Positions 10,908 to 58,806 of a stretch of DNA of 64,000 nucleotides are shown here, in pieces (within the stretch, counting starts at the first letter, position 1; the number at the start of each line of letters is the position of its first letter). Made by a program: the position numbers and the translations under genes. This DNA is from a virus (taxonomy: Duplodnaviria; Heunggongvirae; Uroviricota; Caudoviricetes). Below the pieces are notes generated by a model that searched no databases, was not told the origin of the DNA, and saw nothing but the letters and a program-made list of their open reading frames with translations. The stretch lies in the IMG/VR virus record IMGVR_UViG_3300044712_002452, positions 75,336 to 139,335 of that record; one strand, written 5' to 3'.

Positions 10908-10939
10908 TTCTACAAATATAGAATTGCCAAATCTACAAA
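10908..10939 (-). promoter_or_regulatory. two tandem TTTGTAGA(A/T)TT motif copies upstream of gene 10327..10881
   Basis: Minus strand reads TTTGTAGATTTGGCAATTCTATATTTGTAGAA. Confidence 0.45.
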
Positions 10940-10966
10940 CCAAATTTATATCTATAAAGTTAAACT

Positions 10967-11569
10967 TTATATTTCGGCAGCGGGATCCGCTTTGGATACT
11001 GCATTTTTTTTCAGTACTTCTGATCCAAAAGTCAACCCCCGGTAAGTCTCCCGATCCAGATCATACACATTGCACAGTTCTCCAACCTGTCGGATGATTG
11101 CTTCATCTACGTCGAGCAAAAAAGCGTACACGCCAAAGAATTGCTCCGGATAGATAAAAGTCTCCATATAAGCATATTCTCCCGAATTTGGACCGTAGTA
11201 ATACCGAATACGCTCTTTCAGGTGCGGAGATAGCTGAGAATACCGTCCGTCCAAAAACCGCCCCCAATCCCGCTCAAAGGATGTCATATCGTAGATATGC
11301 GCATGCCCGGTCTGCGTTAAAACCGTCTTTTCATACAATAGCGAGGCTTTGAGTACATGCTCTTCGTACAAAAGGAATTCGGGTGTATTGAGCTCAGGCA
11401 TTCGTTTGTCCACAACCAAAATCAAGCGGCAGTCTTCGGGTTTATAGTGTCCTTCCCAGGCAATAAAGCTGCTCAAACTGCGGACGTGCATGTTGTTTAC
11501 CGTACCGATCGCCGGTAGCAAAAAGCTCCGGCTCTTTTGAAAATACTTGCTGTAAGGTTTTGAAATCAT
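10967..11569 (-). CDS. hypothetical protein
   Basis: 200 aa ORF. Confidence 0.45.
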   Translation of the reverse strand: MISKPYSKYFQKSRSFLLPAIGTVNNMHVRSLSSFIAWEGHYKPEDCRLILVVDKRMPELNTPEFLLYEEHVLKASLLYEKTVLTQTGHAHIYDMTSFERDWGRFLDGRYSQLSPHLKERIRYYYGPNSGEYAYMETFIYPEQFFGVYAFLLDVDEAIIRQVGELCNVYDLDRETYRGLTFGSEVLKKNAVSKADPAAEI

Positions 11570-11593
11570 AGTGTTTTCGGGAGAGGTTTGTAA

Positions 11594-12744: not shown

Positions 12745-13233
12745 TTAAATTCCTGGTTTCAGCATCAAATCGCGGCGGTAAAACTTACCCAAGATGTTAT
12801 CGTTGTAGCTTTCGTAAAACAATACGCCGTATTTGAACTGATAATAGATTTCGAAAAAAGTGAGTTGCTTTTTGGTCAGGCAGATTTGAAGAATTTCCCT
12901 TGAAAACTGTTCTTTACCTTGCTTTTTTACGTCTTCGATCAAAGCTGCAGCACTTCCGTAATAGTTTTTCCAGTTGCTTTCTTTACATACGGTTTTGTAG
13001 GATTTCCGACGTTTATCGGTAGATAGCTCTTTTTGAGAAAGAGCCACTTTGAGATTAGAAAACAAATTTTTTTTTCCGATGTAAAATTTCCCGGTTTGTA
13101 GATTTGTAATCTTGTATACAAAACCAAAAGGTTGAACCGGCGTACCAGGTACAACGCTATCCAAAATATTTGCTAAATCATTGATTATTAGAACAGGCTT
13201 ACCTTTATACATCCAAGAAAGTTGCTGACTCAT
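12745..13233 (-). CDS. GIY-YIG endonuclease (free-standing homing-endonuclease-like)
   Basis: FGFVYKITNLQTGKFYIGKK is a canonical GIY...YIG motif. Own promoter motifs at 13247-13261 and own terminator at 12703-12737. Confidence 0.7.
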   Translation of the reverse strand: MSQQLSWMYKGKPVLIINDLANILDSVVPGTPVQPFGFVYKITNLQTGKFYIGKKNLFSNLKVALSQKELSTDKRRKSYKTVCKESNWKNYYGSAAALIEDVKKQGKEQFSREILQICLTKKQLTFFEIYYQFKYGVLFYESYNDNILGKFYRRDLMLKPGI

Positions 13234-13247
13234 GTAATACGATATTT

Positions 13248-14330
13248 CTACAAATCTACAATAAAATGATTTATTTGTAGATTTATATTCATCGTTTTAT
13301 GAAGTTGATTCAAGAGTTCTTTACGACAAATAGAACGTTTGATTTTTTCGGTACATTCAGCCATATCTTTAATCTTAAATTGATCATTGGGTACCGGTGG
13401 TTTAAAAATGATAGGTAGTACATTCAATTCGGATCGGTATTTTTCCATGGCTTGCAGGCCGGCTGCATCCGTATCCAGTAACGTAAACACCCGATTGTTG
13501 TACCGTTGTTTTAAACCTATAATAACGGGTTCTCCCAGCAAAGTAGTTTCGCTATGTGGCGCTACGAAATCAATGCCCAGGTTTAGTTCACTCATGGCCA
13601 TTCCATCTTTGAGAGAAGCCATAATCAAACAAGACTTGTTGATTTCAGGATTGAGCTGGTCATATCCTTGCAAATAATCGAATATCTTGATGAATTTTCC
13701 TTGCGATTTACCAGGGCTGTAAATTTTGTACAATTCTCCGTTTTTGGTAAAATATCCATAAATCAATCCCGCTTGTTCAGATACCGCAAAATAGTCTTCG
13801 TATTTATTTTTGTTCACCATCACATAATAACTCAGAGGTCGAACATTAAACCGATCTAAAGTAGCGGAACTGATTTTTGGTTTGGACCAAAATTGAATAT
13901 CCAGGCTATTCCAAGAACGTACTTGATAGGCTGAGACTTCGTATTTACTTGAAACCGTGGCGTTTTCCGCTTTGGGTGTGATGGGTTTAACACAACCGCC
14001 GCTACTCAGATATTTTTGATAATCCTGGATGATGTATTGAATAGTTAACCCATAGGAAAACGAGTGACCGTATTGTTGTTCAAGTAAATAGCGCACAAGC
14101 TGAACATGATTGCCTTTTTTTCCGGTCGAAAAATCATTCCATCGCCATTTTTGAATATCCGTCGCAAAGAAAATAAACATGCTGGGTTCATTGTCACCGG
14201 CATTAAAAAGGCTTTTCATCCTGGCCGTTTTCCCTTCGATAAGGGGTTCATCTAATCCGCAATATTGTTCATAAACCCAAGTTTCCGGTACTTCATCTAT
14301 ACTTAAAATGACGTGTTGTAACTGTAGCAT
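13248..14330 (-). CDS. DNA primase, TOPRIM domain
   Basis: TOPRIM-like E...DxD: LGIDFVAPHSE...VFTLLDTDAAG. Sits next to the DnaB-like helicase. Confidence 0.5.
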   Translation of the reverse strand: MLQLQHVILSIDEVPETWVYEQYCGLDEPLIEGKTARMKSLFNAGDNEPSMFIFFATDIQKWRWNDFSTGKKGNHVQLVRYLLEQQYGHSFSYGLTIQYIIQDYQKYLSSGGCVKPITPKAENATVSSKYEVSAYQVRSWNSLDIQFWSKPKISSATLDRFNVRPLSYYVMVNKNKYEDYFAVSEQAGLIYGYFTKNGELYKIYSPGKSQGKFIKIFDYLQGYDQLNPEINKSCLIMASLKDGMAMSELNLGIDFVAPHSETTLLGEPVIIGLKQRYNNRVFTLLDTDAAGLQAMEKYRSELNVLPIIFKPPVPNDQFKIKDMAECTEKIKRSICRKELLNQLHKTMNINLQINHFIVDL

Positions 14331-16357: not shown

Positions 16358-16367
16358 TTTTCTTTTT

Positions 16368-19126: not shown

Positions 19127-19743
19127 GATTGGTGTTGATTTAAAAGAATTTGTTGAACGTTTTCAGGTAATTCGTGTGGATACTGACCGTCTAAGATTCG
19201 TTGATACATATCGGCCAGCGGACTAATAATGGATTTACTGTCTTTGTCGTGTCGTAGTATAAAATACTGCGAACAATGACTAAAAGCAAAATCTTCCTGC
19301 GTTTTGATTTCCAGATACCAGGCTGTAGCCAGTAAAATGATATCCCATTCTACCATAGAGGTAAACATGGTAAAAAAGCTTTGAAAGGTTTTTTTGAGAA
19401 TCAGCGCCGGCTGCCGAGCATATTTACCACTGTCCAATAATTTTGCAGGCCACATCATCCGATAATATTCAATTAAAGCATCTGGAATTTCAATATCCGA
19501 AGGTTTCTTAGCTTTTGGCTTTTTGACTTTAATAGGCGGTGCCGGGAAGAGCTGACTTAACGCCAACTCCCCCTGTTCCGTAATGGAAGCACCTTGCATC
19601 AGACCCTTGTTTACCAAGGCGGCATACTCTTTATTAATGTCAATATCTAAGGGTTGAACTCTTTCTTTATAACACAACATCAGATAAATCTGGTTGGGTG
19701 TTAATTTGAAGGGTTTCGCACTTAGCAGAAATTTCTTTAGCAT
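19120..19743 (-). CDS. hypothetical protein
   Basis: 207 aa. Start uncertain; it may be the internal Met near 19680. Confidence 0.4.
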   Translation of the reverse strand: MLKKFLLSAKPFKLTPNQIYLMLCYKERVQPLDIDINKEYAALVNKGLMQGASITEQGELALSQLFPAPPIKVKKPKAKKPSDIEIPDALIEYYRMMWPAKLLDSGKYARQPALILKKTFQSFFTMFTSMVEWDIILLATAWYLEIKTQEDFAFSHCSQYFILRHDKDSKSIISPLADMYQRILDGQYPHELPENVQQILLNQHQSC

Positions 19744-20344
19744 ACAGGATTTCCAACTCTGTTAAGATTCTTTCGTAGATATTTTGGATAATAGGCTCTT
19801 CTTGGATCCAATCAGACCCAATCTGTAAATTGTGAATAACGGTACTGTGATCCCGGGGTTTCCGAAAGGAATTACCCAATTCTTTGAGTGAAGTAACCGA
19901 ACTGTACGTATGCGCAATCATAGCAAAACAATAGCGATAGTACAGGTATTCTCTTTCCCGATTGTAAGCCGTGACCATAATAGGGTTCAATCCATCTTGT
20001 GCAGCAATTTTTTCAACGATATCTCGAACTTGTTTGACCGGAAAGTGTTTTCTCGGTAATTCGGTCATTTTGTACCAAACTTCAGGGGCAATTCCGACTT
20101 TTTCAAAGAAAGCTTTTTTAAATTCACGGATCATTTTATCCGCCATGATGCGCTGATATTCACGGACTTCAGCCAGTTCAATATTGGTCAATTTGTCGGG
20201 ATCCGTTTTGAGTTTTTTAAACGAAAGCTCGTATTTAGGAATTCGTTCTTCTCGAGCCATTTTTACTTGATCCTGATAGTTTTGTCGTTGGTACCCTCTT
20301 CCGGGTACAAAAACCCGTTTTTTTCGTGTTCGGTGTAAGGTCAT
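19667..20344 (-). CDS. DnaA C-terminal (domain IV) DNA-binding domain homolog
   Basis: REYLYYRYCFAMIAHTYSSVTSLKELGNSFRKPRDHSTVIHN aligns with E. coli DnaA domain IV, R..ARQ.AMAL....[20 protein letters not shown]. ATG at 20344 verified; the promoter motif at 20391-20401 lies upstream. Confidence 0.6.
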   Translation of the reverse strand: MTLHRTRKKRVFVPGRGYQRQNYQDQVKMAREERIPKYELSFKKLKTDPDKLTNIELAEVREYQRIMADKMIREFKKAFFEKVGIAPEVWYKMTELPRKHFPVKQVRDIVEKIAAQDGLNPIMVTAYNREREYLYYRYCFAMIAHTYSSVTSLKELGNSFRKPRDHSTVIHNLQIGSDWIQEEPIIQNIYERILTELEILYAKEISAKCETLQINTQPDLSDVVL

Positions 20345-20390
20345 GGGGCATATTTTACTGATTGATAGATTAATTTTGTATATTTTATTA

Positions 20391-20425
20391 AGTCTACAAA
20401 TGTAACGGGTTATATTTGTAGAATT
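20391..20425. promoter_or_regulatory. divergent promoter pair carrying TTTGTAGA motif in both orientations
   Basis: AGTCTACAAATG faces the minus gene whose start is 20344. TATATTTGTAGAATT faces the plus gene whose start is 20466. TATATTTG matches the Bacteroidetes -7 element TAnnTTTG. Confidence 0.55.
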
Positions 20426-20465: not shown

Positions 20466-20798
20466 ATGAGCGTGAATAACTTAACTGGATTTAAAGCTTG
20501 GTTGACTCCGGTTATCGGAAGTGTACTGTGGTTTTTTATTTGGAGAGATTTATCAGAGCTACGCAGCGATGTAAAAATTCTCTTAGAAAACAAAACCGAA
20601 TCCAGTGGAGAGATTAAAATACTCAAAGAAGATATGCAGCGGGTAAAGGACCGATTGTGGTACAATCCTTCTTCACAAACCCCAGTTTCACAGACGGCTT
20701 TTATCAATACACCCGATAATGCGCGTCAAAAAGGGCCTATGTATCCAAAATGTCGCAAAGGCTATGCGGCATTCATCCATAAAGAAGATGAAGATTAA
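20466..20798 (+). CDS. membrane protein, first gene of lysis cassette (holin-like candidate)
   Basis: N-terminal TM VIGSVLWFFIW. Sits directly upstream of spanin and lysozyme. The promoter motif TATATTTGTAGAATT lies 45 nt upstream. Confidence 0.4.
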   Translation: MSVNNLTGFKAWLTPVIGSVLWFFIWRDLSELRSDVKILLENKTESSGEIKILKEDMQRVKDRLWYNPSSQTPVSQTAFINTPDNARQKGPMYPKCRKGYAAFIHKEDED

Positions 20799-25395: not shown

Positions 25396-25875
25396 TTACA
25401 GTAATTCAAATCCTTCGATTTCACCCTGATCGGTATCGTCTTGGGAAGGTGTGCCCGCAATAGGCGGAAGGAAACCGGAATTTTCATTTGAATTTTCAGG
25501 CGATAGATCAGTTTCCAAATTCGCTTGTTTAGCTTCGATATCCGGCAGTTGTTCGGTATGGGCACTGAGATCCACCTCATCCAAAGCTTTAGCGCTACGT
25601 TTAGTGCCTTGTGTAACAATGGTCGGTTTATCGATTTCTGTGGGTTTGATTTCTTCCAATCCATTAGAAGGGGTATCATCCACCAACAAAAATTTGACTT
25701 CCGCGGGTTTCAGGTCTTTAAGCAAGGGATGACTAAAGAAGATTTTGGCTTCTTTATCGGTCATTCCGTACTTTTTCTGGATGCTGCCAAAGCCGACATC
25801 ATCTTGTTGAAATTTTACCATGCCGGCTTCTAAGTCCGATACGATCTGACTGAGGGTAATTTTAATTTGAGCCAT
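25396..25875 (-). CDS. hypothetical protein with acidic C-terminal tail ending EGFELL
   Basis: ATG at 25875 verified (MAQIKITL). The ORF-track start 26076 overlaps the upstream gene. The C-terminus shares the FELL tip with the 14417..15304 protein. Confidence 0.45.
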   Translation of the reverse strand: MAQIKITLSQIVSDLEAGMVKFQQDDVGFGSIQKKYGMTDKEAKIFFSHPLLKDLKPAEVKFLLVDDTPSNGLEEIKPTEIDKPTIVTQGTKRSAKALDEVDLSAHTEQLPDIEAKQANLETDLSPENSNENSGFLPPIAGTPSQDDTDQGEIEGFELL

Positions 25876-25903
25876 GATTGTTTCTTTGGTTTTGAACGTG
25901 TGA

Positions 25904-26710: not shown

Positions 26711-26727
26711 TTTATATTTGTAGAATT
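26711..26727 (+). promoter_or_regulatory. promoter, TATATTTGTAGAATT
   Basis: 27 nt upstream of the ATG at 26743. A TTTG lies about 18 nt further upstream. Confidence 0.5.
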
Positions 26728-26742: not shown

Positions 26743-27081
26743 ATGTCTACTGTACAAGTGATTAAACCGGAAACCATCTTATCTGTAGAGATTTCTGGCT
26801 ATATGTTGCAAAAACTGCAAGGGAACTTATTGAGCTTCTATAATGCTTTACCTGCTGAAAAACAAAAGGCTCTTCAAGAGATTCTTTCAGATGAAAAACG
26901 CATTTTAGAAGACCAAGATGAAACGCTGGATATAGCGGTCAATTTGATGGCCATCATTACGGCAGCCGAAGAATATGCTCGTGAAAAAGGATTAATTGTA
27001 GAAGAAGAATTTATCATTCCTGACCCAGAATTGGAAAACTCCGATTTGAAACAAAATCCATCCACTGTTGAACAATCGTAA
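26743..27081 (+). CDS. hypothetical protein
   Basis: Start MSTVQV, 27 nt downstream of the TATATTTGTAGAATT promoter motif. Confidence 0.45.
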   Translation: MSTVQVIKPETILSVEISGYMLQKLQGNLLSFYNALPAEKQKALQEILSDEKRILEDQDETLDIAVNLMAIITAAEEYAREKGLIVEEEFIIPDPELENSDLKQNPSTVEQS

Positions 27082-30731: not shown

Positions 30732-30857
30732 TTTTGTTAAATTGAGGGTGTAAAAATAAAGGAATATGTAGATTTATTTGTCAATTTACAGATTTATTTG
30801 TAGAATAAAGACAACAAAAAGCCGCTTGGTGTAAGCGGCCTGTAAATGACAAAGGGA

Positions 30858-31193
30858 TTATTCGCAATCTCCGGTATTCAGTTCTTCAAACTGATCATCT
30901 TCACTGGGAGATTCCTGAGAAAAGTCGTCGGCTGGTATTTCGTCTATATCTTCGAAAGAGGGGAGTTGTTTTTTGATTTCAGCCGGTATCTGAGAACGAA
31001 CCGAAGTGAGAGAAGAGCTGGCAAAAGGGTCGTTGATGTGGTCGCCGGCGTTGATGCTCATCAAATATTGATAATCTAAATCTTCCATATCTAAGTAAAT
31101 GGAAATTGGAATATCAATACAGTTTCCATTGGGTAAACTGACTATGGCCATAAAGGGTAAGGATATTGAATAACATAATGGATTACTATCCAA
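30858..31193 (-). CDS. small highly acidic protein (DNA-mimic / anti-restriction candidate)
   Basis: C-terminal half is D/E-rich: FEDIDEIPADDFSQESPSEDDQFEE. The annotated start appears to be TTG. Terminator hairpin at 30818-30840. Confidence 0.45.
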   Translation of the reverse strand: MDSNPLCYSISLPFMAIVSLPNGNCIDIPISIYLDMEDLDYQYLMSINAGDHINDPFASSSLTSVRSQIPAEIKKQLPSFEDIDEIPADDFSQESPSEDDQFEELNTGDCE

Positions 31194-31261
31194 AGTTATT
31201 TATTCTACAAATTAAAGATCAAACTTTACTCTTAATATGGTTATAAGTCAGCTACATATGG

Positions 31262-31565: not shown

Positions 31566-31937
31566 TTAATAATCGATCACAATGCGATTTTGGTCGATGT
31601 TGATGGCTTTAGCCCCGCGGATCCGAATGCTACAGTTTCCGATTTGAAATTCACTGACATCTTTTAAAGGCGAAATCACCGGTTTACTGACAGGCGCAGG
31701 CTCAGGGGTTACCGTTTTGTCTTGAATGAGTTCAAAAATACGAGAACCGGCTGATTTTTTGAATGGAGCGCCTCGGTGAACCTGGGGCAATCGCAATCCA
31801 TCTTTTTTCCATAACCCCTTGTAATAATGAACCGTAGATACCGCGATTCCCATTCGGTCCGCGATTTCTTGAGGGGTTATAGATTGTTCAACCAGCTTTC
31901 TGATTTGACCCAATTCTTCAGGATTAAGTCGTTTCAT
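31566..31937 (-). CDS. helix-turn-helix DNA-binding protein
   Basis: ITPQEIADRMGIAVSTVHYY is an HTH. Promoter motif variant at 31959-31970, terminator at 31503-31543. Confidence 0.55.
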   Translation of the reverse strand: MKRLNPEELGQIRKLVEQSITPQEIADRMGIAVSTVHYYKGLWKKDGLRLPQVHRGAPFKKSAGSRIFELIQDKTVTPEPAPVSKPVISPLKDVSEFQIGNCSIRIRGAKAINIDQNRIVIDY

Positions 31938-32004
31938 GTTAGTTCATTTGAAGTCTTAAAATAGCAATTCTACATAAATATAGTGTAATTCTATAACAAA
32001 CGTG

Positions 32005-32565: not shown

Positions 32566-32587
32566 AAAAAAGGTTTAAAATAAAAAC

Positions 32588-32612
32588 CCCGGACCAGGAA
32601 TAGTCCGGGGGA
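32588..32612 (-). terminator. terminator of tmRNA gene
   Basis: CCCCGGAC-caggaatagt-CCGGGGG, followed on the minus strand by TTTTTATTTT. Confidence 0.55.
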
Positions 32613-32634
32613 ACAACACCATTAAAAAACTCCG

Positions 32635-33640: not shown

Positions 33641-34132
33641 TTAGGACAAGGAAGTTTGGTTTTGTGGCAGCAAGTATAGGTAAGCATAGCTCATATCAAC
33701 TACATATTGAATGTTCTGAGTGCTATTCCATTGCTGAAAAGCTTCATTTACATGCTCCATGGCTTCAATTAAAGTCCATTGGTTTACTTTAACCAAATGA
33801 GCTAATACGTGAGGCATTCTACCGTTGATATGGGCCAGTCCGGCATGTTTAACTTGATGGCACTCAGGACAAAGGGCTATAACGCCCGTCAGGGTTTGGA
33901 TTCGTTTTTCATGATCGATTTCCCATTTTTCGTGGCATTCGACCGGATGATTTCGACCCTGATTTTTACCATTGTCGTCGCAGATTTCGCACACATAACC
34001 GGCATTGCGATAACAGTTTTTACGAACATAATCCCATTCTAAAGCGCTTAATTCTTTTCGTAAATTGATGTATTGGGTTTTTGCCGGTACCAGCTCACAA
34101 ACAAGTTTAGGTAGGTTATTTGGGTACTGCAT
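33641..34132 (-). CDS. Cys/His-rich zinc-finger protein (HNH-like)
   Basis: CEICDDNG...HPVECHEKWEIDHE...ALCPECHQVKH. Confidence 0.45.
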   Translation of the reverse strand: MQYPNNLPKLVCELVPAKTQYINLRKELSALEWDYVRKNCYRNAGYVCEICDDNGKNQGRNHPVECHEKWEIDHEKRIQTLTGVIALCPECHQVKHAGLAHINGRMPHVLAHLVKVNQWTLIEAMEHVNEAFQQWNSTQNIQYVVDMSYAYLYLLPQNQTSLS

Positions 34133-34440
34133 GTCGGATAATTATTGGTTTAAGGTTGTCAAATATATATGCTTTATAGATATATCGTTGTAATTTGTAG
34201 ACATTTATTTTTTCTCCAAAAAGTAGATTTAATCTCCAAAATACAACCTGTTTTTCTGGATGTTTAAACATCTATTTGTTCAAAAAATTCTAATAGATTG
34301 ATTTTGACACAATTGAAAATTGAATTTCTTGCACAGAATCGAAAAATTTTAAAACCTACAAGAATACATTTTGAAGATTTAAACCTGAATTTGAGGGAAA
34401 AAAGTCTTTTTCGGATATCAAATTGCCTAAATCAAATTTT

Positions 34441-34698: not shown

Positions 34699-35050
34699 GG
34701 CGTAAATTTTGAGAATTAGAGATTTTTGTATCGATCGCGGGCATTGATGTCCAGCGGTTGATCTTTGCCGGCAACAAGCGCAGCGTAAATCCAAATGAAC
34801 AACCCTGCGCATAAAATAGTACCCGTTAATAAGTATTTAAGTTCCATAGGTGCTTTTTTTTGAATTGAAAGAATCTGAAACTTTGGTTTTTTGGGCGTTT
34901 TGTGCCCGGCGGTTGCGCCAGTCTATGCCGTATATAATATACCACAGGGCGCCGAGTAATGCAATCTTCATTTGGAGAGTTTTAGTCTACGAATATAAAT
35001 AAATCTACACAATAAATATGTAGATTTATTTAATTTTTTTTTGAAACGCG

Positions 35051-38133: not shown

Positions 38134-38190
38134 TTTTGCTTGTTAAAGTGTTACGTAATGTGCCATAATTATTTATTTTTTTTTGATTGA

Positions 38191-38260
38191 AGCATGTCAG
38201 GGAATCGAACCCCGCTATTAGTCACCCGCCCAATAATCATCATCCAAGACGAACATGCTG
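38191..38260 (-). other. tRNA-like 70-nt element (T-arm plus acceptor-like 3' end; not a canonical tRNA)
   Basis: Minus strand AGCAUGU...CGGGG-UUCGAUU-CCCUG-ACAUGCU-U has a terminal 7-bp pairing and a GGGGUUCGAUUCCC T-arm, but no canonical D or anticodon arms. Confidence 0.25.
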
Positions 38261-38324
38261 AAAAAAAGACCATTCAGGAGAGTAAATACCAACCCGAATG
38301 GTCATTTAAAATTGTGATACCCGG

Positions 38325-39334: not shown

Positions 39335-39518
39335 TACCGAGGACAGGATTCGAACCTGTATGCCGCACTTCTAGCATTTATCATTTCTGCCGACTTTCCA
39401 ATCCTAAGTAGGTCAGAATCTAGTTGTCCCACTGACTAATGGCTTTCATCAGATTTTTAATGCTTAGGGTATGGGGTGCTGCTGAATCTCATGCGTCTAC
39501 CAATTTCGCCACCTCGGC
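39335..39518 (-). tRNA. tRNA-Leu-like gene interrupted by an about 120-nt insertion
   Basis: 5' part GCCGAGGUGGCGAAAUUGGUAGACGCAUGAGAUUCAG matches the canonical tRNA-Leu start (acceptor, D-arm, CAG in the anticodon-loop position). 3' part ACAGGUUCGAAUCCUGUCCUCGGUA is a T-arm plus the acceptor CCUCGGU, complementary to GCCGAGG. The two parts are 184 nt apart. Confidence 0.4.
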
Positions 39519-48454: not shown

Positions 48455-49252
48455 TCATAGGGAAATATCTTCTTTGTCCTGATTGGGATTTGAGATCAGG
48501 TTGCTGGGTAGGTATTGTGGATCGGCTTGTCCGGTGGTTTTATCGAACCATTCTTTGAGTCCGTAGTATCGGGTATCGCTAAAGAGTATGATGCTGTTCA
48601 GGGTACCGGCCAGTAGCTTTTGTCTTTTAGTATAGGCTTTTGGGTGTTTGAGCATATGCTCCGTTACGCGGCACATTTTATTCAGGCTCTTTTCCAGGCG
48701 GTATAGTTTGGAATGAAGGCTTCCGCCTCCTTGGGTGGGTTGGCTCAGGTGTTCGTTGAGTTCCGGGTATTGGGTGGTTACGATGCTCAGGATGTCTAAG
48801 GACGACATCATGATACCGCGTTCTTTGATGATCTTGTATAAGATGGATCCGTAGTAAAAGCGGGATTTGGTTTTGATGTCATTGAGTTCGGCTTGTACGA
48901 CGGCTATGTTGATATCCGGTGATGGGTTTGGAAGGTTGTCGGTTTCCGCCGGTTCGGTAGGGGGTACCGGACCGCAAGATTCAGTCGGTTCGTTTTTGGG
49001 TGTTTGTTCGGATGTGGTGGTAGGTATTTGCTTGGATGCGGCGATCAGGGCATTTCGGATTACGGTTGCCAGTTGCAGCTCACCATTTAACGCCTGGCTG
49101 CGGGCAATCAGGGGATTTATCAAATAGTCGATTTCTTGGATTTCCGTTTTCAGGGTGTCTATCTGCGCGTTGACTTTTTTTAAGACAAACCGAAACTCTT
49201 CGGGCGATGATTGATGGGGATGCTCACAAGCGGTAAATTTTGAAGTATTCAT
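48455..49252 (-). CDS. hypothetical protein (last minus-strand gene before the switch region)
   Basis: 265 aa with a predicted coiled coil. Promoter motifs at 49275-49300. Confidence 0.5.
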   Translation of the reverse strand: MNTSKFTACEHPHQSSPEEFRFVLKKVNAQIDTLKTEIQEIDYLINPLIARSQALNGELQLATVIRNALIAASKQIPTTTSEQTPKNEPTESCGPVPPTEPAETDNLPNPSPDINIAVVQAELNDIKTKSRFYYGSILYKIIKERGIMMSSLDILSIVTTQYPELNEHLSQPTQGGGSLHSKLYRLEKSLNKMCRVTEHMLKHPKAYTKRQKLLAGTLNSIILFSDTRYYGLKEWFDKTTGQADPQYLPSNLISNPNQDKEDISL

Positions 49253-49274
49253 GTTTTATACTTTAGGTGGAAAC

Positions 49275-49350
49275 AAATCTACAACTTAAATCTACATTTC
49301 CAAATTTATTTGTAGAATAATTTTGCGGTTTCAATTTAGTTTGTAGATTT
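49275..49350. promoter_or_regulatory. cluster of four TTTGTAGA-family motifs (two per orientation) at the edge of the switch region
   Basis: AAATCTACAAC and AAATCTACATTT on the minus side. TTTGTAGAATAA and TTTGTAGATTT on the plus side. Confidence 0.45.
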
Positions 49351-49418
49351 GCATCCAGCAATCGTGGGAGCTTAACCGGGGGCGGTTGAGATCCTTTATG
49401 TTGGGGTACAAGTTTCGT

Positions 49419-49452
49419 TAATTTTGTGTTTTAGGGACCGACCTGCGTTTTT
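49419..49452 (+). terminator. plus-strand rho-independent terminator inside the non-coding switch region
   Basis: GACCTGCG-ttttta-CGCGGGTC then TTTTTTTTG. No plus-strand CDS lies upstream of it. Confidence 0.5.
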
Positions 49453-50251
49453 ACGCGGGTCTTTTTTTTGCCTAAAAATCAAGTCTCTAAAATAATTTTG
49501 TAGATATAAAAACCGTTTGTAGATTTGTTGCCCAACATAGGATTGTTTATCAATCCATCGGTTGATGTATGTTCGGCTGCGCTATCGCCCCCGCTTTAAA
49601 ACTTGGTGACAAGTAGGGTTACGGGAATTCGGTAGGGTACCCGATGTCGGTTCTGCCGGCGCTTAAAGCACAAATTGAGGTACGTAAAATCCATGGGTCT
49701 GCTTTGATTAAAACATTATTCAAGGTTCGTTTCGGGGGAAACTAAGATTCATCTCTTGTAAAGGTTCACGGGTAAAACCGGGAACGGACAAACAAACTCT
49801 CTGAGGCTTTAAGGGTATATCAACCGCTGATCAAGCAACCGGGAAAAATTAAACCCGGTTGCTTTATACCAGGAGCGAACCCGCTCGTGTTAACCCTCGG
49901 TATATACTTCTTACAATAGGTCTTGTATGTTTTGAGTAAGGTTAGAAAAATTGACTGTATCCTTCGAATGTACTTGCTTTCAGGACCTATCCCACGCACG
50001 CACACGCGTAAGCACCCATTCCAATCGTAAAAATTTTTCCCCGCCGGCATGGGCCGGACATAAAAAAGCCCCAAGATAAATAGCTCGGGGCGTATGGTGA
50101 TATCCTGAACTTCACCATTGACCTACAACAAAAATAAAAAAATAAATGTAGGAAAGAAAATTAATTCGCTTTTTATTGTAGATATATTTTGTAGATTAAA
50201 ATACTATTTGTATGTTCGTATTATCTATTCTCTGAATTCAAGTTAAAATCC

Positions 50252-50524
50252 ATGTCTAATACAAACCAACCTACGCAAGATCAGGCTGCCGATTCAAAAG
50301 TCAGTTTTGAACAGCAGTGTGCGCGTTTGGATCAGCAAATAGCTTTGCTATCGCGTATGAGCCAAATAGCCAAAGAAAAATCCCTGATCGAAGAATATCG
50401 AGTTAAAGAATTACGGGCGCGGATAGAATACATCCACTATACGCAGCCTAATCCTGAAGATCAGGATGCTAAAAAAACCGATGAGAAACCAACCGAAAAT
50501 CCAAACCCTACGCCTGAATCATGA
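50252..50524 (+). CDS. hypothetical protein (first plus-strand late-module gene)
   Basis: 90 aa. Promoter motifs at 50177-50201. Confidence 0.4.
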   Translation: MSNTNQPTQDQAADSKVSFEQQCARLDQQIALLSRMSQIAKEKSLIEEYRVKELRARIEYIHYTQPNPEDQDAKKTDEKPTENPNPTPES

Positions 50525-53705: not shown

Positions 53706-53720
53706 AATCCTTATCCTATG
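53706..53720 (+). promoter_or_regulatory. late-gene start-context motif AATCCTTATCCTATG
   Basis: The same motif abuts the ATG of terL (53718), the portal gene (55958, ATATCCTATG), the capsid gene (60176) and the gene at 63812. Confidence 0.45.
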
Positions 53721-55943
53721 AATCCTATCCTAACTGCGGCGGCAACGCCGTTTAAAGAAGTGCCGTATCTGGATGCCGATACCGGCATTTGGTCCACTCG
53801 ACTTTTTGACACCCGAGAACATTTTGTTTCCTTTCTCTGGTCTTGTTTCAAAGAACCGGGCAAATATGAGTTCGATCAGTCCGTTTTTAATATCAATGAA
53901 GAAGGCCGGAAATTTCAAGCCCGTAATTATTACACTTCACTGGTTCCCAAAACCAAAGACTGGAAGCATTACTGGGATACCCAAAAGCTTCGCTCCCGTC
54001 AAGGGGTCGTTTTAACCCACCAAGGGAAGACCTGGTATTTTACGCGGGATTACTACATGTGGTTGAACTTCTTACCCATCTACCACAAAGAAAAAAAGGT
54101 GTTTGCTTTTCCGGCTATTCGAGACGTTCAATATCATATTGCGCTATTCGAAACGATCGCTGAATACACTTTTAAGCATGTGGTATTGCTTAAAAAACGG
54201 CAGATTGCCTCTTCTTATTTCCACGCCGGCAAGCTCATCAACGGCTTTTGGTTTGAAGAAGGATTTGTGGGTAAGATGGGTGCTTCGCTTAAAGACTACA
54301 TCAATGAAAAAGGTACTTGGCTGTTTTTAAACGAATACTCCAACTTTCTCAACACCCACACGGCTTGGTACCGGCCTATGAATCCGGGAAAAGTGTTTGC
54401 TTGGGTGCAGCAAGTAGAAGTCAAAAACAACGGGCGTACGCAAACGCGCGGTTTGAAATCCCGCATTTCGGGTATGTCTTTTGAAAAAGACCCGACCAAT
54501 GGTGTAGGTGGACCTTGTACTTTTTTCTTCCATGAAGAAGGGGGTATTGCGCCACAAGCCGATACTACTTATGAGTTCATTCGACCCGCTATGCAGGATG
54601 GATTTATCACAACCGGTCTATTTGCTTTAGCGGGTTCAGTGGGTGATCTGGATCAATGTAAGCCGCTGGAAAAATACTTGAAGAACCCAATGGGGAACGG
54701 ATTTTTAGGGGTGGAAACAGATCTCTTTAATTCCAAAGGGGAACGCCGGGTATGCGGTTTGTTTATTCCCGAACAGTGGGGTATGCCGCCATTCATTGAC
54801 CCATATGGAAACTCCATGGTGAAAGAAGCCTTGGAAGCCATTATGGAACAACGGGCGGAATGGAAAAAAGACTTGGAGCCGCAGGAATATCAACTGCGGA
54901 TTTCGCAGGGGCCCATTAACATTGAAGAAGCCTTTGCTACCCGAAAGCTCTCCAAATTTCCGGCACATATCCTGCAAGCCGAAATTCAAAAAATAGAAGA
55001 CAAGACTTATCCCACTGAATACCTGGAACTCTACCGAACCGAACAAAACAAGATTCAGGCGCGTACCAGCCGGCGAACGCCGATCGTGGATTTTCCCATC
55101 AGTGCCAAAACCGAAAACAAAGAAGGGGTGCTAGTAGTGCACGAGCGGCCGGTGGAAAATGCGCCTTGGGGAAGCTACTATGCATCCATTGACCCGGTAG
55201 GTGAAGGTAAAACCACAACCTCGGATTCGCTTTGTACTATTTACGTTTACCGGGTTCCGACCGAAGTAGCGGTGTACCGCTCGGATGGCTCGCTCAATCA
55301 CACCCGTATTGATGGGGATTATGTGGTCGCGCATTGGTGCGGACGTTACGATGATATCAAAGACACCCACGAAATGCTGGAAATGATCATTGAGTGGTAC
55401 AATGCTTGGGCGCTAGTGGAAGCCAACGTCAGCTTGTTTATCAATTACATGATCACCCAGAAAAAGCAAAAATACTTGGTACCCAAAGACCAGATTGTTT
55501 TCTTAAAAGAACTGAGTGCCAACCAATCGAGCTATCAGGATTACGGATGGAAAAACACCGGCACTTTTTTCAAAACCAATTTGCTGAGTTATCTCATTGA
55601 GTTTATCAAAGAAGTGGTGAACAACGACTTTGACGAAAACGGAAAGGTAATAGAAGCCAGTAAAAAATTTGGGGTTTGCCGGATTCGAGATAAAATGGCT
55701 TTGGTAGAAGCCCTGGCTTATCAGGATGGACTCAACGTGGACCGATTGGTGGCACTGGCCGCTCTGATTGCTTTTGTCAAATTGCAGACTGCCAACCGAG
55801 GTTACAAGAAAATCAAAGAGTATGAAACCCCTTTGGTAGATACTCAAAAAAAGGCTAATTTATTAGTAAGGCAACCTTTTCGAAATCTGGAACGTGGGCG
55901 ATCCACGCAGGGTATTCGTAGACGACCTTTCAAAAATTTATAA
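53718..55943 (+). CDS. terL: terminase large subunit
   Basis: Deviant Walker A VLTHQGKT (T4 gp17 has SRQLGKT). C-terminal RNaseH-like nuclease motifs YASIDPVGEG and WALVEANVS. Gene order TerL-portal-scaffold-MCP. Confidence 0.65.
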   Translation: MNPILTAAATPFKEVPYLDADTGIWSTRLFDTREHFVSFLWSCFKEPGKYEFDQSVFNINEEGRKFQARNYYTSLVPKTKDWKHYWDTQKLRSRQGVVLTHQGKTWYFTRDYYMWLNFLPIYHKEKKVFAFPAIRDVQYHIALFETIAEYTFKHVVLLKKRQIASSYFHAGKLINGFWFEEGFVGKMGASLKDYINEKGTWLFLNEYSNFLNTHTAWYRPMNPGKVFAWVQQVEVKNNGRTQTRGLKSRISGMSFEKDPTNGVGGPCTFFFHEEGGIAPQADTTYEFIRPAMQDGFITTGLFALAGSVGDLDQCKPLEKYLKNPMGNGFLGVETDLFNSKGERRVCGLFIPEQWGMPPFIDPYGNSMVKEALEAIMEQRAEWKKDLEPQEYQLRISQGPINIEEAFATRKLSKFPAHILQAEIQKIEDKTYPTEYLELYRTEQNKIQARTSRRTPIVDFPISAKTENKEGVLVVHERPVENAPWGSYYASIDPVGEGKTTTSDSLCTIYVYRVPTEVAVYRSDGSLNHTRIDGDYVVAHWCGRYDDIKDTHEMLEMIIEWYNAWALVEANVSLFINYMITQKKQKYLVPKDQIVFLKELSANQSSYQDYGWKNTGTFFKTNLLSYLIEFIKEVVNNDFDENGKVIEASKKFGVCRIRDKMALVEALAYQDGLNVDRLVALAALIAFVKLQTANRGYKKIKEYETPLVDTQKKANLLVRQPFRNLERGRSTQGIRRRPFKNL

Positions 55944-55957
55944 TCCGGAGATATCCT

Positions 55958-58735
55958 ATGAGAGTACTCAATGCGCTGCAAATCAAAAATGGAGTCGGTG
56001 TCGGTCAAAGACGCTCCGGTACAACTTTGCTTACCCGACCCCTAAACTTCGTATCTGAAACGGAGAAAGATGAAGACTGGGCTATGGATCACATGGACTG
56101 GCTGGAAGAAGAAGGTATCAATCAGATTCGGCGTAAAGCGCCCAGCATGCTCAAAAAGTATCGATTGGCGCAAGGGGTGATTGATCGCAGCGATTATATT
56201 CCCGATGAATCCTGTAATGAGCATGCGGAACTCATTGACTTGCTCACCCGCAACGAAGAAAACACACCCAGCAAACTAAAATTCTATCCCATCATACCCA
56301 ATGTGATGCGGATCCTGCTTACCGAATTTGCCAAACGTCGATCCAAATTAGAGTTTCGGGCCATTGATACTTTATCTCAAAACGAGATCATCCGCAAAAA
56401 GACCAGTGAAATTGAAGAAGTCTTGATGTCAGAAGCTTACCAGAAGCAGCTTTTGTCGATGATGGAAATGGGTTATCAGCCGGATGATGAAGAAGTGGTA
56501 CAAGCCCTTAGTGCGGACAATTTAAAAAAACTCCCTGAAATTGAAGAGTATTACCGCCGGGATTATAAAAGCGACTATGAACTCTGGGCCAATGTCCAGC
56601 ATGCCGCAGATGTCGAGCGTTTTTGTTTTGATGAAAAAGAATTAATCGCTTACGGTGATTACCTGACAGTTGGAGAACAATATTGGCATTACCGGATGAT
56701 GGAAGACGACTATGAAGTGGAACTCTGGAATCCGGTGTTTACGTTTTCGCATAAAAGCGTCGACAAAAAATATGTGAGCGAAGGCAATTTTGTCGGAAAT
56801 ATTCAGCTCATGCCTTTTGCAGATGCCATTGACGCCTATGGTTATTTGATGGGTGACATGGATTTTGAAGATATGGAGCAACGCAATTTCCGGCACGTTT
56901 CGGGAAATAGCAATCTGTACAGCTCTAACACCCAAAATGACGGGTCGATGTACGACAGTTCCAAGTCTTATGAATGGAATACCAATCTGCCGGGCGTGGC
57001 CATGCGCCAATACTTAGATGCCCGCGGACGGTTTAACTCTTCGGATTTTATGGATGAGATTATCAATGGTTCCGGATACCAGGATCCCTTTGATACTTAT
57101 TCCGAAGATTTGGTGCGGGTATCTACAATGTATTGGATCTCCCAGCGAAAAGTGGGTATTCTAACTGAACAGCTCGGGCCGGGCATGCCGGTGACTAAAC
57201 TTGTGACTGAACAATTTAGTGTTACCCATCAGCCTATTTACAATACCACGGTTTTCACTGAAAAAAGCGAACTCAATTTGGTGTATGGTCAGCACGTAAA
57301 CTGGTTCTGGATCAAAGACCTTTGGGGTGGCGTGAAGATTTCACCCAATATGGCACCGGCCCGGCTGCGTGGTAGCAATACTTCTTTTGAACCGATTTAC
57401 CTGGGTATCGATTCCAAGAAACCCAGTCGCATGCGGTTTCAACCCAAAGGATATTCCGGTAAATATTCGGTTTGTCTGCCAGTAGAAGGATTGACAGGTA
57501 CGGCCCGAAATTCGGAAATCCGCACGCCGGTCGATTTAATGACCCCTTCTCAACTGCAATTCAATATGGTCAATAACCAAATTGCAGATATCATGATCGA
57601 TGAGAAAGGACAAGTGATGTTGCTCGATCATAATGCTTTACCCAAAAATTCAATGGGTGAAGAGTGGGGGCATGGTAATTTGGCAAAAGCCTATGCGGCT
57701 ATGCAAGATTTTGGAATCTTGCCTTTGGATACCGTGATTTCCAATACCGAAAACGCTTTGAATTTCTCTCACTACCAGGTGTTGAATTTCGAAGAAACCA
57801 ATCGTTTGCTCGGTAGAATACAACTGGCCGCTTATTTCAAGCAAGAAGCTTATTCAACTCTGGGTATCAACCCGCAGCGTATTGGCGGTGAAACCGGCCG
57901 GCAAACAGCTAAAGGCGTAGAAGAAAACCTCAACGCTTCTTACAACCAAACGGAAACTTGGTTTATCGAACACTGTGATCATTTGATGCCTCGGGTTCAC
58001 CAAATGCGGACCAATTTTGCTCAATACTATCATTCATCTAAATCCAGTTTTCGACTGCAAGTACTGACTTCCAATAGTCAGCGCAAGATGTTTGAGTTCT
58101 CCGGCGAACAATTAAACGGGCGGGATATTCACGTGTACGCGGTTACCAAAAGCAATCGCCGGGAAACTATGCGTAAACTCGAGTCTTTGGCCATCAACAA
58201 CAATACGACCGGCGGATCCTTGAATGATTTGGGATCACTGATGAACGCAGAAAGCCTGATCGAAATGACGGATGCTCTGGCACGGATTGAACAAAAGCAA
58301 CAGGCGGCGCTGGAAGCTGAGCGTGCCCACGAAAAAGAAATTGAACAGATGCGCATGCAAGAGCAAGCCGCTATTCGGGATAAAGAACTGGCCCAAGAGA
58401 AACAAATTGCAGACGATAAAAACAAGACCGATATCATCACCAGCGAAATCAAAGCGGCGGGATATGGTTCTATGGAAGATATCAATGCCAATCAGCAAAG
58501 TGATTACCTGGATGCCCTTGACCGGATTCAGGCTTCCGAGCAGTACCGGGATACCATGGACTTTAAACGGGAGCAAGAGCGCAATAAGATTCAAGTGGCT
58601 AGAGAGCAACTGAACCAGAAAATGCAGGATCGTGCGAGCAAAGAGCGGATTGCTGACAAACAACTTCAGGTTGCACGTGAAAACAAAAACAAGTACGACG
58701 TAGAAAAAAAGAAAAAAGCTAACGCAAAAAAATAA
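55958..58735 (+). CDS. portal protein with Lys/Glu/Gln-rich coiled-coil C-terminal extension
   Basis: 925 aa, lies between TerL and scaffold. The last about 150 aa are a highly charged coiled coil. Confidence 0.5.
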   Translation: MRVLNALQIKNGVGVGQRRSGTTLLTRPLNFVSETEKDEDWAMDHMDWLEEEGINQIRRKAPSMLKKYRLAQGVIDRSDYIPDESCNEHAELIDLLTRNEENTPSKLKFYPIIPNVMRILLTEFAKRRSKLEFRAIDTLSQNEIIRKKTSEIEEVLMSEAYQKQLLSMMEMGYQPDDEEVVQALSADNLKKLPEIEEYYRRDYKSDYELWANVQHAADVERFCFDEKELIAYGDYLTVGEQYWHYRMMEDDYEVELWNPVFTFSHKSVDKKYVSEGNFVGNIQLMPFADAIDAYGYLMGDMDFEDMEQRNFRHVSGNSNLYSSNTQNDGSMYDSSKSYEWNTNLPGVAMRQYLDARGRFNSSDFMDEIINGSGYQDPFDTYSEDLVRVSTMYWISQRKVGILTEQLGPGMPVTKLVTEQFSVTHQPIYNTTVFTEKSELNLVYGQHVNWFWIKDLWGGVKISPNMAPARLRGSNTSFEPIYLGIDSKKPSRMRFQPKGYSGKYSVCLPVEGLTGTARNSEIRTPVDLMTPSQLQFNMVNNQIADIMIDEKGQVMLLDHNALPKNSMGEEWGHGNLAKAYAAMQDFGILPLDTVISNTENALNFSHYQVLNFEETNRLLGRIQLAAYFKQEAYSTLGINPQRIGGETGRQTAKGVEENLNASYNQTETWFIEHCDHLMPRVHQMRTNFAQYYHSSKSSFRLQVLTSNSQRKMFEFSGEQLNGRDIHVYAVTKSNRRETMRKLESLAINNNTTGGSLNDLGSLMNAESLIEMTDALARIEQKQQAALEAERAHEKEIEQMRMQEQAAIRDKELAQEKQIADDKNKTDIITSEIKAAGYGSMEDINANQQSDYLDALDRIQASEQYRDTMDFKREQERNKIQVAREQLNQKMQDRASKERIADKQLQVARENKNKYDVEKKKKANAKK

Positions 58736-58806
58736 TTTTTTGTAGAATTTGAAATTTATTCTACAAATGATTATATTATAATTGTAGATAAAACCAACTA
58801 TTTGAT

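Follow-up and report, generated by a model that had tools for sequence, protein, structure and literature searches.

Known promoters and operators

The C1 operators of phage P1 form a dispersed, asymmetric operator family, and the late promoters of T4 consist of a single element, TATAAATA, served by a gp55-like sigma. In the Bacteroidota, the sigma-A (sigma-ABfr) promoter is said, after work by Bayley in 2000, to combine a -33 TTTG with a -7 TAnnTTTG. The upstream TTTG or TTG stands some 19–21 nt from the -7 box, in which T-12, A-11, T-8, T-7, T-6, and G-5 hardly vary. The -7 element has been refined in F. johnsoniae to TAHHTTTG, which leaves G out at -10 and -9, and lies 4–5 nt from the start site; G is almost never found at -10, and the mean leader is 33 nt (PMC6847099). 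The crAss-like phage phi14:2 has mapped, rifampicin-sensitive middle promoters of the form TTGnnn-N17-TAnnTTTG followed by TA, such as TATATTTGTATAAAT, and its gp66 is a virion polymerase of 2180 residues (10.1101/2020.03.07.982082).

The DNA considered here is part of a ~139-kb metagenomic phage, uncultured and distantly related to the crAss-like phages, whose host is probably a member of the Bacteroidota; the window analyzed is 64,000 nt long. It carries a recurrent word, TTTGTAGAWTT, that may be a promoter element specific to this phage, one that takes the host -7 box as its base and is set out in tandem and divergent arrays, a reading to which we give a probability of roughly 45%. The motif is a real but fairly ordinary type of phage regulatory signal.

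A recurrent intergenic word

The exact word TTTGTAGAWTT is found nine times in the window against 0.29 expected, a count reached in none of 100 shuffles, and 35 times (7.6 expected) when up to one mismatch is allowed; TGTAGAAT is found 11 times (2.4 expected). The preliminary description had named equal density in coding and non-coding DNA as one result that would speak against the motif. On a curated gene map, in which 12.1% of the window is non-coding, 18 of the 23 occurrences of TGTAGAWT are non-coding, a density 26-fold higher there (binomial p = 5e-13). TGTAGA alone has a non-coding count of 23, compared to 3.5 in Markov-2 simulations, and the most over-represented non-coding 8-mer is TTTGTAGA (15 vs. 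0.57). The intergenic word can be written TTTGTAGA(A/T)TT, with about 27 recurrences almost only between genes.

The claim of more than 20 copies holds up, since 27 good copies with the TGTAGA core lie in or abut 13 intergenic spots across 48 kb. Calling the family genome-wide was an overstatement, as there are no copies at 1–10.9 kb or in the 35.1–49.2 kb block of small genes. Every interval listed earlier does hold copies, with that placed at 31959–70 moved to 31966–31976. The copies are as follows.

10906..10916, minus: TTTGTAGAATT; with the TATA just before it reads TATATTTG, a perfect -7 box; 27 nt before the start codon (ATG) of gene 10327..10881
10929..10939, minus: TTTGTAGATTT(G); the TAGATTTG within it is a perfect second-register TAnnTTTG; in tandem with 10906, 23 nt further upstream
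13095..13105, plus: TTTGTAGATTT; within the SegE-like gene, antisense
13244..13254, minus: TTTGTAGAAAT; 13 nt before the ATG of 12745..13233, a homing endonuclease gene (GIY-YIG, SegE-like)
13252..13262, minus: ATTGTAGATTT; overlapping tandem partner (8-nt offset) of 13244; covers the stop codon of gene 13248..14330
13274..13284, plus: TTTGTAGATTT; inverted partner of 13252, antisense, within the 3' end of gene 13248..14330
20390..20400, minus: TTTGTAGACTT (TACATTTG box); 48 nt before the DnaA-domain-IV-like gene 19667..20344
20415..20425, plus: TTTGTAGAATT (TATATTTG box); divergent partner of 20390; 43 nt upstream of gene 20466..20798
26717..26727, plus: TTTGTAGAATT (TATATTTG box); 18 nt upstream of gene 26743..27081
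30765..30775, plus: TATGTAGATTT; antisense to the flanking minus-strand genes
30797..30807, plus: TTTGTAGAATA; antisense, toward the terminator 30819–30841; the region's best sigma-70-like match (TTGTCA-17-TAGAAT)
31201..31211, minus: TTTGTAGAATA; 52 nt before gene 30858..31151; 5 nt past the copy, a separate perfect -7 box, TAACTTTG
31966..31976, minus: TATGTAGAATT; 31 nt before the HTH-like gene 31566..31937; TATATT 2 nt upstream of the copy
34194..34204, plus: TTTGTAGACAT; antisense; ~28 nt upstream, on the opposite strand, of the canonical box TATATTTG preceding gene 33641..34132
35001..35011, minus: TGTGTAGATTT; 32 nt upstream of small ORF 34837..34971
35017..35027, plus: TATGTAGATTT; inverted partner of 35001, antisense
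49275..49285, minus: GTTGTAGATTT(G) (TAGATTTG box); 25 nt before gene 48455..49252
49288..49298, minus: AATGTAGATTT; tandem partner, 13 nt upstream of 49275
49309..49319, plus: TTTGTAGAATA; divergent from 49288; perfect box TAATTTTG begins 1 nt past TGTAGA
49340..49350, plus: TTTGTAGATTT(G) (TAGATTTG box); heads a candidate small RNA
49497..49507, plus: TTTGTAGATAT (TAATTTTG box); right behind the small-RNA candidate's terminator
49516..49526, plus: TTTGTAGATTT(G) (TAGATTTG box); 19 nt past 49497; ~550 nt without a convincing ORF downstream
50175..50185, plus: ATTGTAGATAT; 69 nt upstream of gene 50252..50524, the first of the plus-strand structural block
50188..50198, plus: TTTGTAGATTA; tandem partner of 50175; 56 nt upstream of 50252
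58739..58749, plus: TTTGTAGAATT; directly 3' of the stop codon of the portal gene; 60 nt before gene 58807..60123
58757..58767, minus: TTTGTAGAATA; 10-bp inverted repeat with 58739, antisense
58781..58791, plus: ATTGTAGATAA; 5 nt after TATATT (TTGAAA-17-TATATT); 18 nt upstream of 58807

Copies are spaced 8–42 nt apart in groups of two to four, in mixed orientation and with some inverted pairs. Sixteen of the 27 are sense, 13–69 nt before a start codon, and this favors the promoter reading when set against the mean leader in F. johnsoniae (PMC6847099). Only about half of these sixteen lie within the 25–50 nt that had been described as the rule; four other copies lead into the gene-free stretch 49253–50251, and seven are antisense (13097, 13276, 30767, 30799, 34196, 35019, and 58760) while matching the motif as well as sense copies do. 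Counting six further copies just outside the window, 22 are sense and 11 antisense, a weak bias in direction. The third of copies that is antisense counts against the promoter reading, and spacings of 8–13 nt would be awkward for separate promoters.

This layout would also suit operators for a sequence-specific, phage-encoded DNA-binding protein, overlapping or flanking complete promoters and switching them off or on, an explanation that we consider somewhat unlikely but a serious competitor. Variable spacing, both orientations, inverted pairs, and the weak bias all point that way.

Overlap with the host -7 box

Perfect TAnnTTTG boxes are found in 12 of the 27 copies, six ending at the G of TGTAGA and six as TAGATTTG, where local base composition predicts ~0.3 and ~0.2 for the two registers; the other 15 copies have no perfect box. 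The preliminary description had recognized the first register and missed the second. Across the window, TAnnTTTG occurs 23 times in non-coding and 27 times in coding DNA. An operator unrelated to promoters would not need boxes in just two registers.

In the promoter reading, the motif would be the conserved core of the phage's own promoter consensus, elaborating the sigma-A -7 element, and host RNA polymerase would probably read it, perhaps with a phage factor. Initiation at the motif, the form of the polymerase, and the register used are what we infer from the sequence. In form A, TAnnTTTG-TAGAAT, the G of TGTAGA would close the box and the transcript would begin at TAGA or just past it; in form B, TTTG-TAGATTTG, the box would open at the TA of TGTAGA. 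Copies would then be stacked as tandem and back-to-back promoters, standing in front of leading operon genes, short promoter-gene-terminator units, and one or more small-RNA-like units. The order motif, gene, strong terminator is seen at 10327..10881, the SegE-like gene 12745..13233, 30858..31151, 31566..31937, and the small-RNA candidate, and translation starts lack Shine-Dalgarno sequences. TAnnTTTGTA is present in six copies and TATATTTGTAGAATT three times in the window; the close resemblance of TATATTTGTAGAATT to the phi14:2 host-polymerase promoter TATATTTGTATAAAT argues for the promoter reading.

Other details fit it less well. Form A boxes TATATTTG, TACATTTG, and TAATTTTG comply with the no-G rule, one form A box (13247, TAGATTTG) has G at -10, and so do all form B boxes. 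No -33/-35 element is conserved at a fixed distance, aligned upstream positions reaching at most 0.64 bits with no fixed-offset TTG peak; the -33 element is likewise weak in F. johnsoniae (PMC6847099). Both the missing upstream element and the form B G count against the promoter reading. The TTGAAA-17-TATATT arrangement is found only at the promoter after the portal gene (58749–58777) and is not general. Promoters of the classical sigma-70 type are no commoner than chance would give, which is what a Bacteroidota-type host would lead one to expect. TGTAGA lies 0, 1, 2, or 5 nt downstream of -10/-7-like hexamers or overlaps them, and such offsets argue for operators and against the promoter reading, because a fixed core-promoter element should not vary.

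Some of the same features would be accounted for by a single-element promoter for a phage-specified machine, be it a sigma-like factor, a protein that modifies host polymerase so that -33/-35 can be dispensed with, or a crAss-type virion RNA polymerase, working beside host-type boxes for multi-stage expression. The sole -10-like hexamer common to the copies lies inside the motif (TAGAWT; TAnnnT is matched in 22 of 27), no upstream element is conserved, host-type boxes adjoin or overlap copies at variable offsets, and G at -10 is atypical for host sigma (PMC6847099). About 9 kb left of the window there is also a 2271-residue ORF, a size typical of crAss-like virion polymerases. However, its C-terminal 431 residues match no annotated family, and none of the 92 window proteins, which cover 64 of the ~139 kb, matches a sigma or RNA polymerase family (Pfam, E <= 0.01). 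Early transcripts of the phi14:2 virion polymerase have no common upstream motif (10.1101/2020.03.07.982082), and the motif here precedes replication-module and late structural genes alike, unlike a single temporal class. With the antisense third of the copies added, such a machine appears decidedly unlikely.

A gene-free kilobase

The 1-kb gene-free region 49253–50251 holds eight copies and lies at a switch of gene orientation and GC skew. It includes one further feature.

49346..49472, plus: candidate small RNA of ~120 nt, structured (z = -4.1), with a strong terminator at 49440–49461 and a T-run

The best fold starts at 49346, inside TAGA, an indirect hint that transcription may start 4–5 nt past the box, and no Rfam family was matched by the candidate. 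The earlier idea that stray copies drive antisense or small RNAs is plausible for 49340–49472, with its motif pair, structured unit, and terminator, and unproven elsewhere.

Eight copies at such a switch could also mean that the motif acts outside initiation, as origin iterons, as 5'-terminal RNA elements or hairpins, or as relics of duplicated intergenic cassettes. Four unrelated viral contigs (L211, L247, L173, and L269) have tandem, iteron-like arrays of this 11-mer, but the arrays were picked by the search pattern itself and share no genes with the window. Converging pairs (58739/58757, and 18165/18180 in L086) would form hairpins, with changes in the arms of relatives preserving pairing (G-U compatible), yet most copies have no inverted partner. 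Iterons would be regular direct repeats at one locus beside an initiator gene; here, at least 13 loci over 48 kb give no single origin, and spacing is irregular and orientation mixed. The flanks of different copies are mutually unrelated, so simple duplication fails as an explanation. Roles outside initiation are highly improbable.

Conservation in relatives

Upstream of the post-portal gene, TATATT is kept in 75 of 77 relatives, and in 21 of 65 distinct relatives, among them basal lineages as well as one large clade, TGTAGA follows exactly 5 nt behind it, at a position that spans the predicted start site. In 471 upstream regions of relatives, TGTAGA is sense 43 times and antisense 18 times, with a peak 21–40 nt before the ATG. 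This sense excess and the kept 5-nt position favor the promoter reading. The motif's near-exclusive place in non-coding DNA, the promoter-gene-terminator units, an overlap with -7 boxes far above chance, and the homologous position in relatives together support a promoter-tied cis-element, be it a piece of the promoter or an operator lying over it, where the preliminary description had made no choice among a promoter class, a regulator site, and a host sigma-A site with a phage addition.

At this same promoter, the near-invariant core is TATATT, and TGTAGA, present in about a third of lineages, looks accessory, as an operator might. The window, L049, and L054 have additional TGTAGA copies 42–54 nt upstream of the one at the start site, which again suits operators. 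Against the promoter reading, TGTAGA recurs in L001, the closest relative, with neither TTTG nor WTT beside it, and the further upstream copies in L001, L049, and L054 have no TATATT.

A DnaA-like candidate binder

Two genes could supply an operator-binding protein.

19667..20344, minus: encodes a candidate binder that has the DNA-binding fold of the DnaA C terminus (domain IV)
31566..31937, minus: small protein with a weak N-terminal HTH match, the binder proposed earlier

The HTH match of the second is below the Pfam cut-off, and the preliminary description overlooked the first, which is the better-supported candidate. It scores 32.1 bits against Bac_DnaA_C (curated cut-off 31.5, E = 1.2e-7) and has no AAA+ domain. 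Four of six base-contacting residues listed in PMC2533591 and PMC7561715 are kept (R399, D433, H434, and H439) and two are changed (T435S and P423K), in an alignment with E. coli and B. subtilis DnaA. As the best candidate for the operator explanation, this protein might read a variant DnaA box and regulate its own gene too: TGTAGAT and the DnaA-box core TGTGGAT agree in six of seven positions, and the gene stands behind a divergent motif pair. The same divergent region carries TGTAGA, TGTAGG, or TGTAAG in six syntenic relatives (L099, L102, L104, L123, L125, and L141), the last with TGTAAG at both plus-strand sites.

Other evidence goes against such binding. Measured against the full 9-mer TTWTNCACA, the reverse complement of the motif, AAWTCTACA, differs at positions 1 and 2 and at the invariant C6, and canonical DnaA boxes occur about as often as chance predicts (21 vs. 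18). Of 77 viral loci with DnaA-C-like proteins, many that have the same SLK...RDHSTVIH signature are not enriched in TGTAGA within 6 kb, and the correlation across phages is weak. Searches turned up no close homologue of the protein, whose binding role is a proposed one.

One could go further and consider TGTAGAWTT a set of variant DnaA boxes, bound genome-wide by the AAA+-less protein as a global promoter switch that includes its own and the late structural promoter and may organize an origin in the gene-free region; this is rather doubtful. If it were true, the DNA-reading head of a bacterial initiator would have been re-used by a phage as a transcription regulator, one common to a large uncultured crAss-related group.

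Comparison with known systems

The P1 C1 operators and T4 late promoters have no sequence similarity to the motif, and no counterpart of their repressor or gp55-like sigma was identified in the window. Like the motif, they are short asymmetric words found at numerous intergenic places across a large phage genome, some paired or overlapping and some antisense.

DnaA boxes share with the motif their asymmetry, 9-mer size, clustering, both orientations, and presence in promoter regions, including that of the candidate binder's own gene. The differences are the altered C6 and positions 1–2, the lack of AAA+ in the phage protein, and sites that are dispersed rather than at one origin.

Unlike Bacteroidota sigma-A promoters, the motif has an invariant TGTAGA straddling the box edge, no conserved -33, 15 copies without a perfect box, and G at -10 in form B. 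It resembles them in being made of -7-box pieces (TTTG, TA..TTT), in its perfect boxes, in leader-like distances to start codons, in translation starts that lack Shine-Dalgarno sequences, and in sigma-70-type promoters no commoner than chance.

In the phi14:2 middle and late promoters a clear TTGnnn stands 17 nt upstream and neither GA nor WTT is conserved, and multi-copy clusters and antisense copies are not described for that phage (10.1101/2020.03.07.982082). The two phages nevertheless belong to the same crAss capsid and portal lineage, the phi14:2 sequence of TAnnTTTG followed by TA is matched here in six copies, and in both the upstream region is A-rich, a motif stands before the post-portal gene, and long intergenic regions are apparently transcribed.

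Motif counts and layout

The word TTTGTAGAWTT, with its core TGTAGA, marks a motif family that belongs to the control regions of phage transcription. The family put forward in the preliminary description is real, with 9 exact copies of the word compared to 0.29 expected, and 35 compared to 7.6 when up to one mismatch is allowed. That description had also turned on the difference between coding and intergenic density, and TGTAGAWT proves to be 26 times denser in non-coding DNA (p = 5e-13). An unbiased count of non-coding words ranks TTTGTAGA first (15 against 0.57), with no other comparable word. The aligned copies share a stretch of about (A/T)TTTGTAGA(A/T)TT(A/G), and no position further upstream exceeds 0.64 bits. 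A literature search for the word returned primers only.

Copies with this core number 27, in 13 intergenic spots. A start codon lies 13-69 nt ahead of 16 copies, in their direction, while 4 copies aim into a 1-kb gene-free stretch and 7 are antisense. Six further copies just outside the window are split evenly, three sense and three antisense (counting one inverted pair per flank), so that the overall ratio is 22:11. Neither 1-10.9 kb nor the small-gene array at 35.1-49.2 kb holds a copy. Elsewhere, motif, gene and strong terminator together form a unit:

10327..10881, compact unit
12745..13233 (minus strand), SegE-like GIY-YIG homing endonuclease, free-standing, that has a motif cluster of its own
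30858..31151, compact unit
31566..31937, compact unit

The cluster of the SegE-like gene overlaps the stop codon of the gene upstream, as expected of an inserted mobile cassette.

The gene-free kilobase (49253-50251) separates divergent gene blocks. It has no homologue in 85 related loci by blastn or nhmmer and no Rfam family match. Within it are a structured small-RNA candidate of ~120 nt with a strong terminator (49346-49472, z = -4.1), ~550 nt that are richer in G+C and where no ORF is convincing, and, on the minus strand, a strong terminator (50068-50091) that no gene precedes.

The phage, its relatives and its likely host

The window encodes a helicase and an exonuclease as well as the following genes:

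8153..10231, DNA polymerase
53718..55943, large terminase
55958..58735, portal
60176..61801, major head protein

Genes up to 49252 use the minus strand, save for two short plus-strand islands, and from 50252 onward they use the plus strand. Portals of Crassvirales, of Cellulophaga phages phi17:2 and phi4:1, and of a Leptolyngbya phage share 21-28% identity with that of the window, and the head protein of relatives carries the Pfam domain Crass_capsid. An identical portal is found on ~139-kb contigs, the other assemblies of the phage are 100% identical, and metagenomic portal homologues number more than 5000, the nearest 52% identical. The group is very large, entirely uncultured and distantly akin to the crAss-like phages, with genomes of 120-140 kb. 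Neither a megablast of 12 kb against GenBank phages nor a scan of viral contigs with the portal protein alone gave a match; the relatives compared here are 80 portal-containing viral loci and five from metagenomes.

The host is likely a member of the Bacteroidota, because one relative has a SusD-like gene, A-rich leaders of the AAAACCAAC type rather than Shine-Dalgarno sites precede start codons, sigma-70-type promoters are not above chance, and TAnnTTTG is strongly concentrated in non-coding DNA, which makes up 12% of the sequence but has 23 of the 50 boxes. Tandem TTTGTAGAWTT pairs, sought in 185,579 species genomes, fall in scattered taxa, with Bacteroidota mildly over-represented among the matches listed, and do not indicate a host clade.

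The host -7 box within the motif

In Flavobacterium johnsoniae, the -7 element reads T-12 A-11 n n T-8 T-7 T-6 G-5; G is almost never found at -10 or -9, the transcription start site is 4-5 nt away, and leaders average 33 nt (PMC6847099). Some copies had earlier been said to embed this TAnnTTTG box. The claim holds for a register in which a perfect box ends at the G of TGTAGA, seen in six copies (TATATTTG three times, TACATTTG, TAATTTTG and TAGATTTG), but it missed a second one, in which the box starts at the TA of TGTAGA (TAGATTTG, six different copies). Perfect boxes in each register are 20-35 times as frequent as expected by chance. The only TAnnnT hexamer common to most copies is TAGAWT itself (22 of 27).

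At a probability of roughly 0.45, we favor the reading that the motif is a promoter consensus specific to the phage, an elaboration of the host -7 box that host polymerase would read. In favor of a promoter element are the motif's exclusivity to non-coding DNA, its spacing from start codons, which resembles that of leaders, the more than expected perfect host boxes in two registers, the unit structure with terminators, and the analogy to phi14:2. It is improbable that a phage-specified form of polymerase reads the motif instead, since none of the 92 window proteins gave a match to a sigma or RNA polymerase domain, although a 2271-residue ORF outside the window, for which no identity was found, leaves some room for one. 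Other roles for the copies are very unlikely, and a small remainder of the probability is unassigned. As it stands, the motif is an ordinary type of phage signal, whose mechanism we infer from sequence. Having such a word defined, as promoter or regulator, yields a first map of the group's transcription units, points out possible small RNAs and mobile cassettes that are self-contained, and offers ready-made parts for Bacteroidota expression.

The post-portal promoter in relatives

Upstream of the post-portal gene, 75 of 77 relatives (portal-linked loci L001-L085) keep AAATTTnTnAAGTTTA, a spacer of ~5 or 16 nt, and (TTG)TATATT. TGTAGA follows TATATT by exactly 5 nt in 21 of 65 distinct sequences, and its place is taken in the others by TATAGA, TGTAAC, TATAAC or TAAGTA, roughly TRTARH. 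This family-wide promoter ends with a AAAACCAAC leader after TRTARH. In the window, it reads TTGAAA-17-TATATT-ATAAT-TGTAGA; if TATATT is the -10-like hexamer, TGTAGA would span the start site. On the portal tree, the basal branches (the window, its closest relative L001, and L004) have the TGTAGA state, as do a single large clade and two tips scattered elsewhere. The idea that TGTAGA replaces TATATT as the -10 in short-spacer relatives was dropped, as each of the two spacer classes includes sequences that have TGTAGA and sequences that lack it. The conserved architecture is a useful landmark for annotation across the phage group.

Across 471 upstream regions of relatives, TGTAGA is sense in 43 cases versus antisense in 18, peaking 21-40 nt before the ATG. 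It lies 4-5 nt past TATAWT in 26 of the 43 sense cases, which are mostly one orthologous promoter and hence not independent. In L001, too, several intergenic regions contain clusters of more than one copy, but the flanks are different (cTGTAGAcc), lacking TTTG or WTT, and two other relatives (L049 and L054) carry an extra copy, ~53 nt before the one at the start site, that lacks any TATATT.

Possible operator sites and a DnaA-like candidate binder

The copies could also be the sites of an operator family, which is possible but less probable than a promoter element. Several features count against a fixed core-promoter element. The offset of TGTAGA from -10/-7-like hexamers varies (two overlapping registers, otherwise distances of 1, 2 or 5 nt on either side). 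Antisense copies make up one third and are as well conserved as sense copies, and copies can lie 8-13 nt apart or in inverted pairs. The late promoter that is orthologous in relatives keeps a near-invariant core, while TGTAGA behaves as an accessory. These features fit operators.

On sequence grounds, a candidate binder of TGTAGA sites is the protein of 19667..20344, a gene fronted by a divergent motif pair. It matches Bac_DnaA_C above the Pfam cut-off, and when aligned with DnaA domain IV reference sequences, it appears to keep R399, D433, H434 and H439, with the changes T435S and P423K; the base-contact residues are from PMC2533591 and PMC7561715. TGTAGAT is one base away from the DnaA-box core TGTGGAT. 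The motif differs from the full DnaA-box 9-mer at three positions, the invariant C6 among them, and canonical DnaA boxes are not enriched. In syntenic relatives, the same divergent region contains copies that read TGTAGA, TGTAGG or TGTAAG, whereas 77 viral DnaA-C-like loci show no general association with TGTAGA. A word search for homologues of 19667..20344 returned only itself, and a PDB sequence search with the protein gave nothing significant. The DnaA-like reading is the one that would be surprising, and the operator reading, if right, would mean a new, DnaA-derived class of phage regulators.

The word in other viruses

A pattern search of viral contigs brought up, for the most part, arrays of tandem repeats and bins of giant viruses, with no genes in common with the window. 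Unrelated contigs (L211/L202, L247, L173, L206, L209, L269 and L267) have iteron-like arrays or intergenic clusters of TTTGTAGA(A/T)TT, with array units of 8, 12, 21-24 and 39 nt; the search pattern partly selected for these arrays and clusters. L267 carries the word in five intergenic clusters, and its proteins are unannotated.

Other genes and RNAs

A candidate phage-encoded tmRNA (32632-33143, minus strand) matches the full Rfam model at 57.1 bits versus a gathering score of 47 and is followed by a strong terminator (32587-32610); ARAGORN made no tmRNA call. At 39335-39518 (minus strand), an Rfam tRNA match over 184 nt (32.5 bits, no ARAGORN call) suggests that a tRNA gene is split by ~110 nt of inserted sequence. 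The gap 38134-38324 contains a second tRNA-like T-arm (GGGGTTCGATTCCC), also without an ARAGORN call, and tRNA-Met (61855-61927) is normal. A leader, AATCCTTATCCT (or CCCTTATCCT), directly precedes the ATG of the terminase (53706-53717) and major head genes (60164-60175) and recurs at ~63800-63811, before the gene after 63714; it may be a translation-start signal common to late genes.

At 6874-7092 (minus strand), a 72-residue protein, with a weaker match in L001, has the Acb2/Tad1 hairpin domain of a family of anti-defense nucleotide sponges. On the same phage, 2-5 kb left of the window (L088 13024-15894), adjacent Prok_Ub, Prok-E2_D and ThiF (E1-like) genes amount to a phage-carried ubiquitin-like conjugation set; the 2271-residue ORF comes after them, on the opposite strand. 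Two good minus-strand ORFs, 25396-26076 and 25904-26704, overlap by 173 nt, which may reflect a mis-set start, a frameshift or a programmed overlap.

Comparison with phi14:2

The middle promoters of the crAss-like phage phi14:2, which were mapped by primer extension and depend on rifampicin-sensitive host polymerase, have a tripartite motif (preprint 10.1101/2020.03.07.982082). Its promoter sequences in the GenBank record consist of an A-tract, TTG(A/C)(C/A), 17 nt and TAnnTTTG. TA follows TAnnTTTG in five of six cases, such as TATATTTGTATAAAT, which precedes both g070 and the post-portal gene g092. Long intergenic regions are found in phi14:2 too, where they are highly transcribed, and TATATTTGTAGAATT of the window differs from TATATTTGTATAAAT at two positions.
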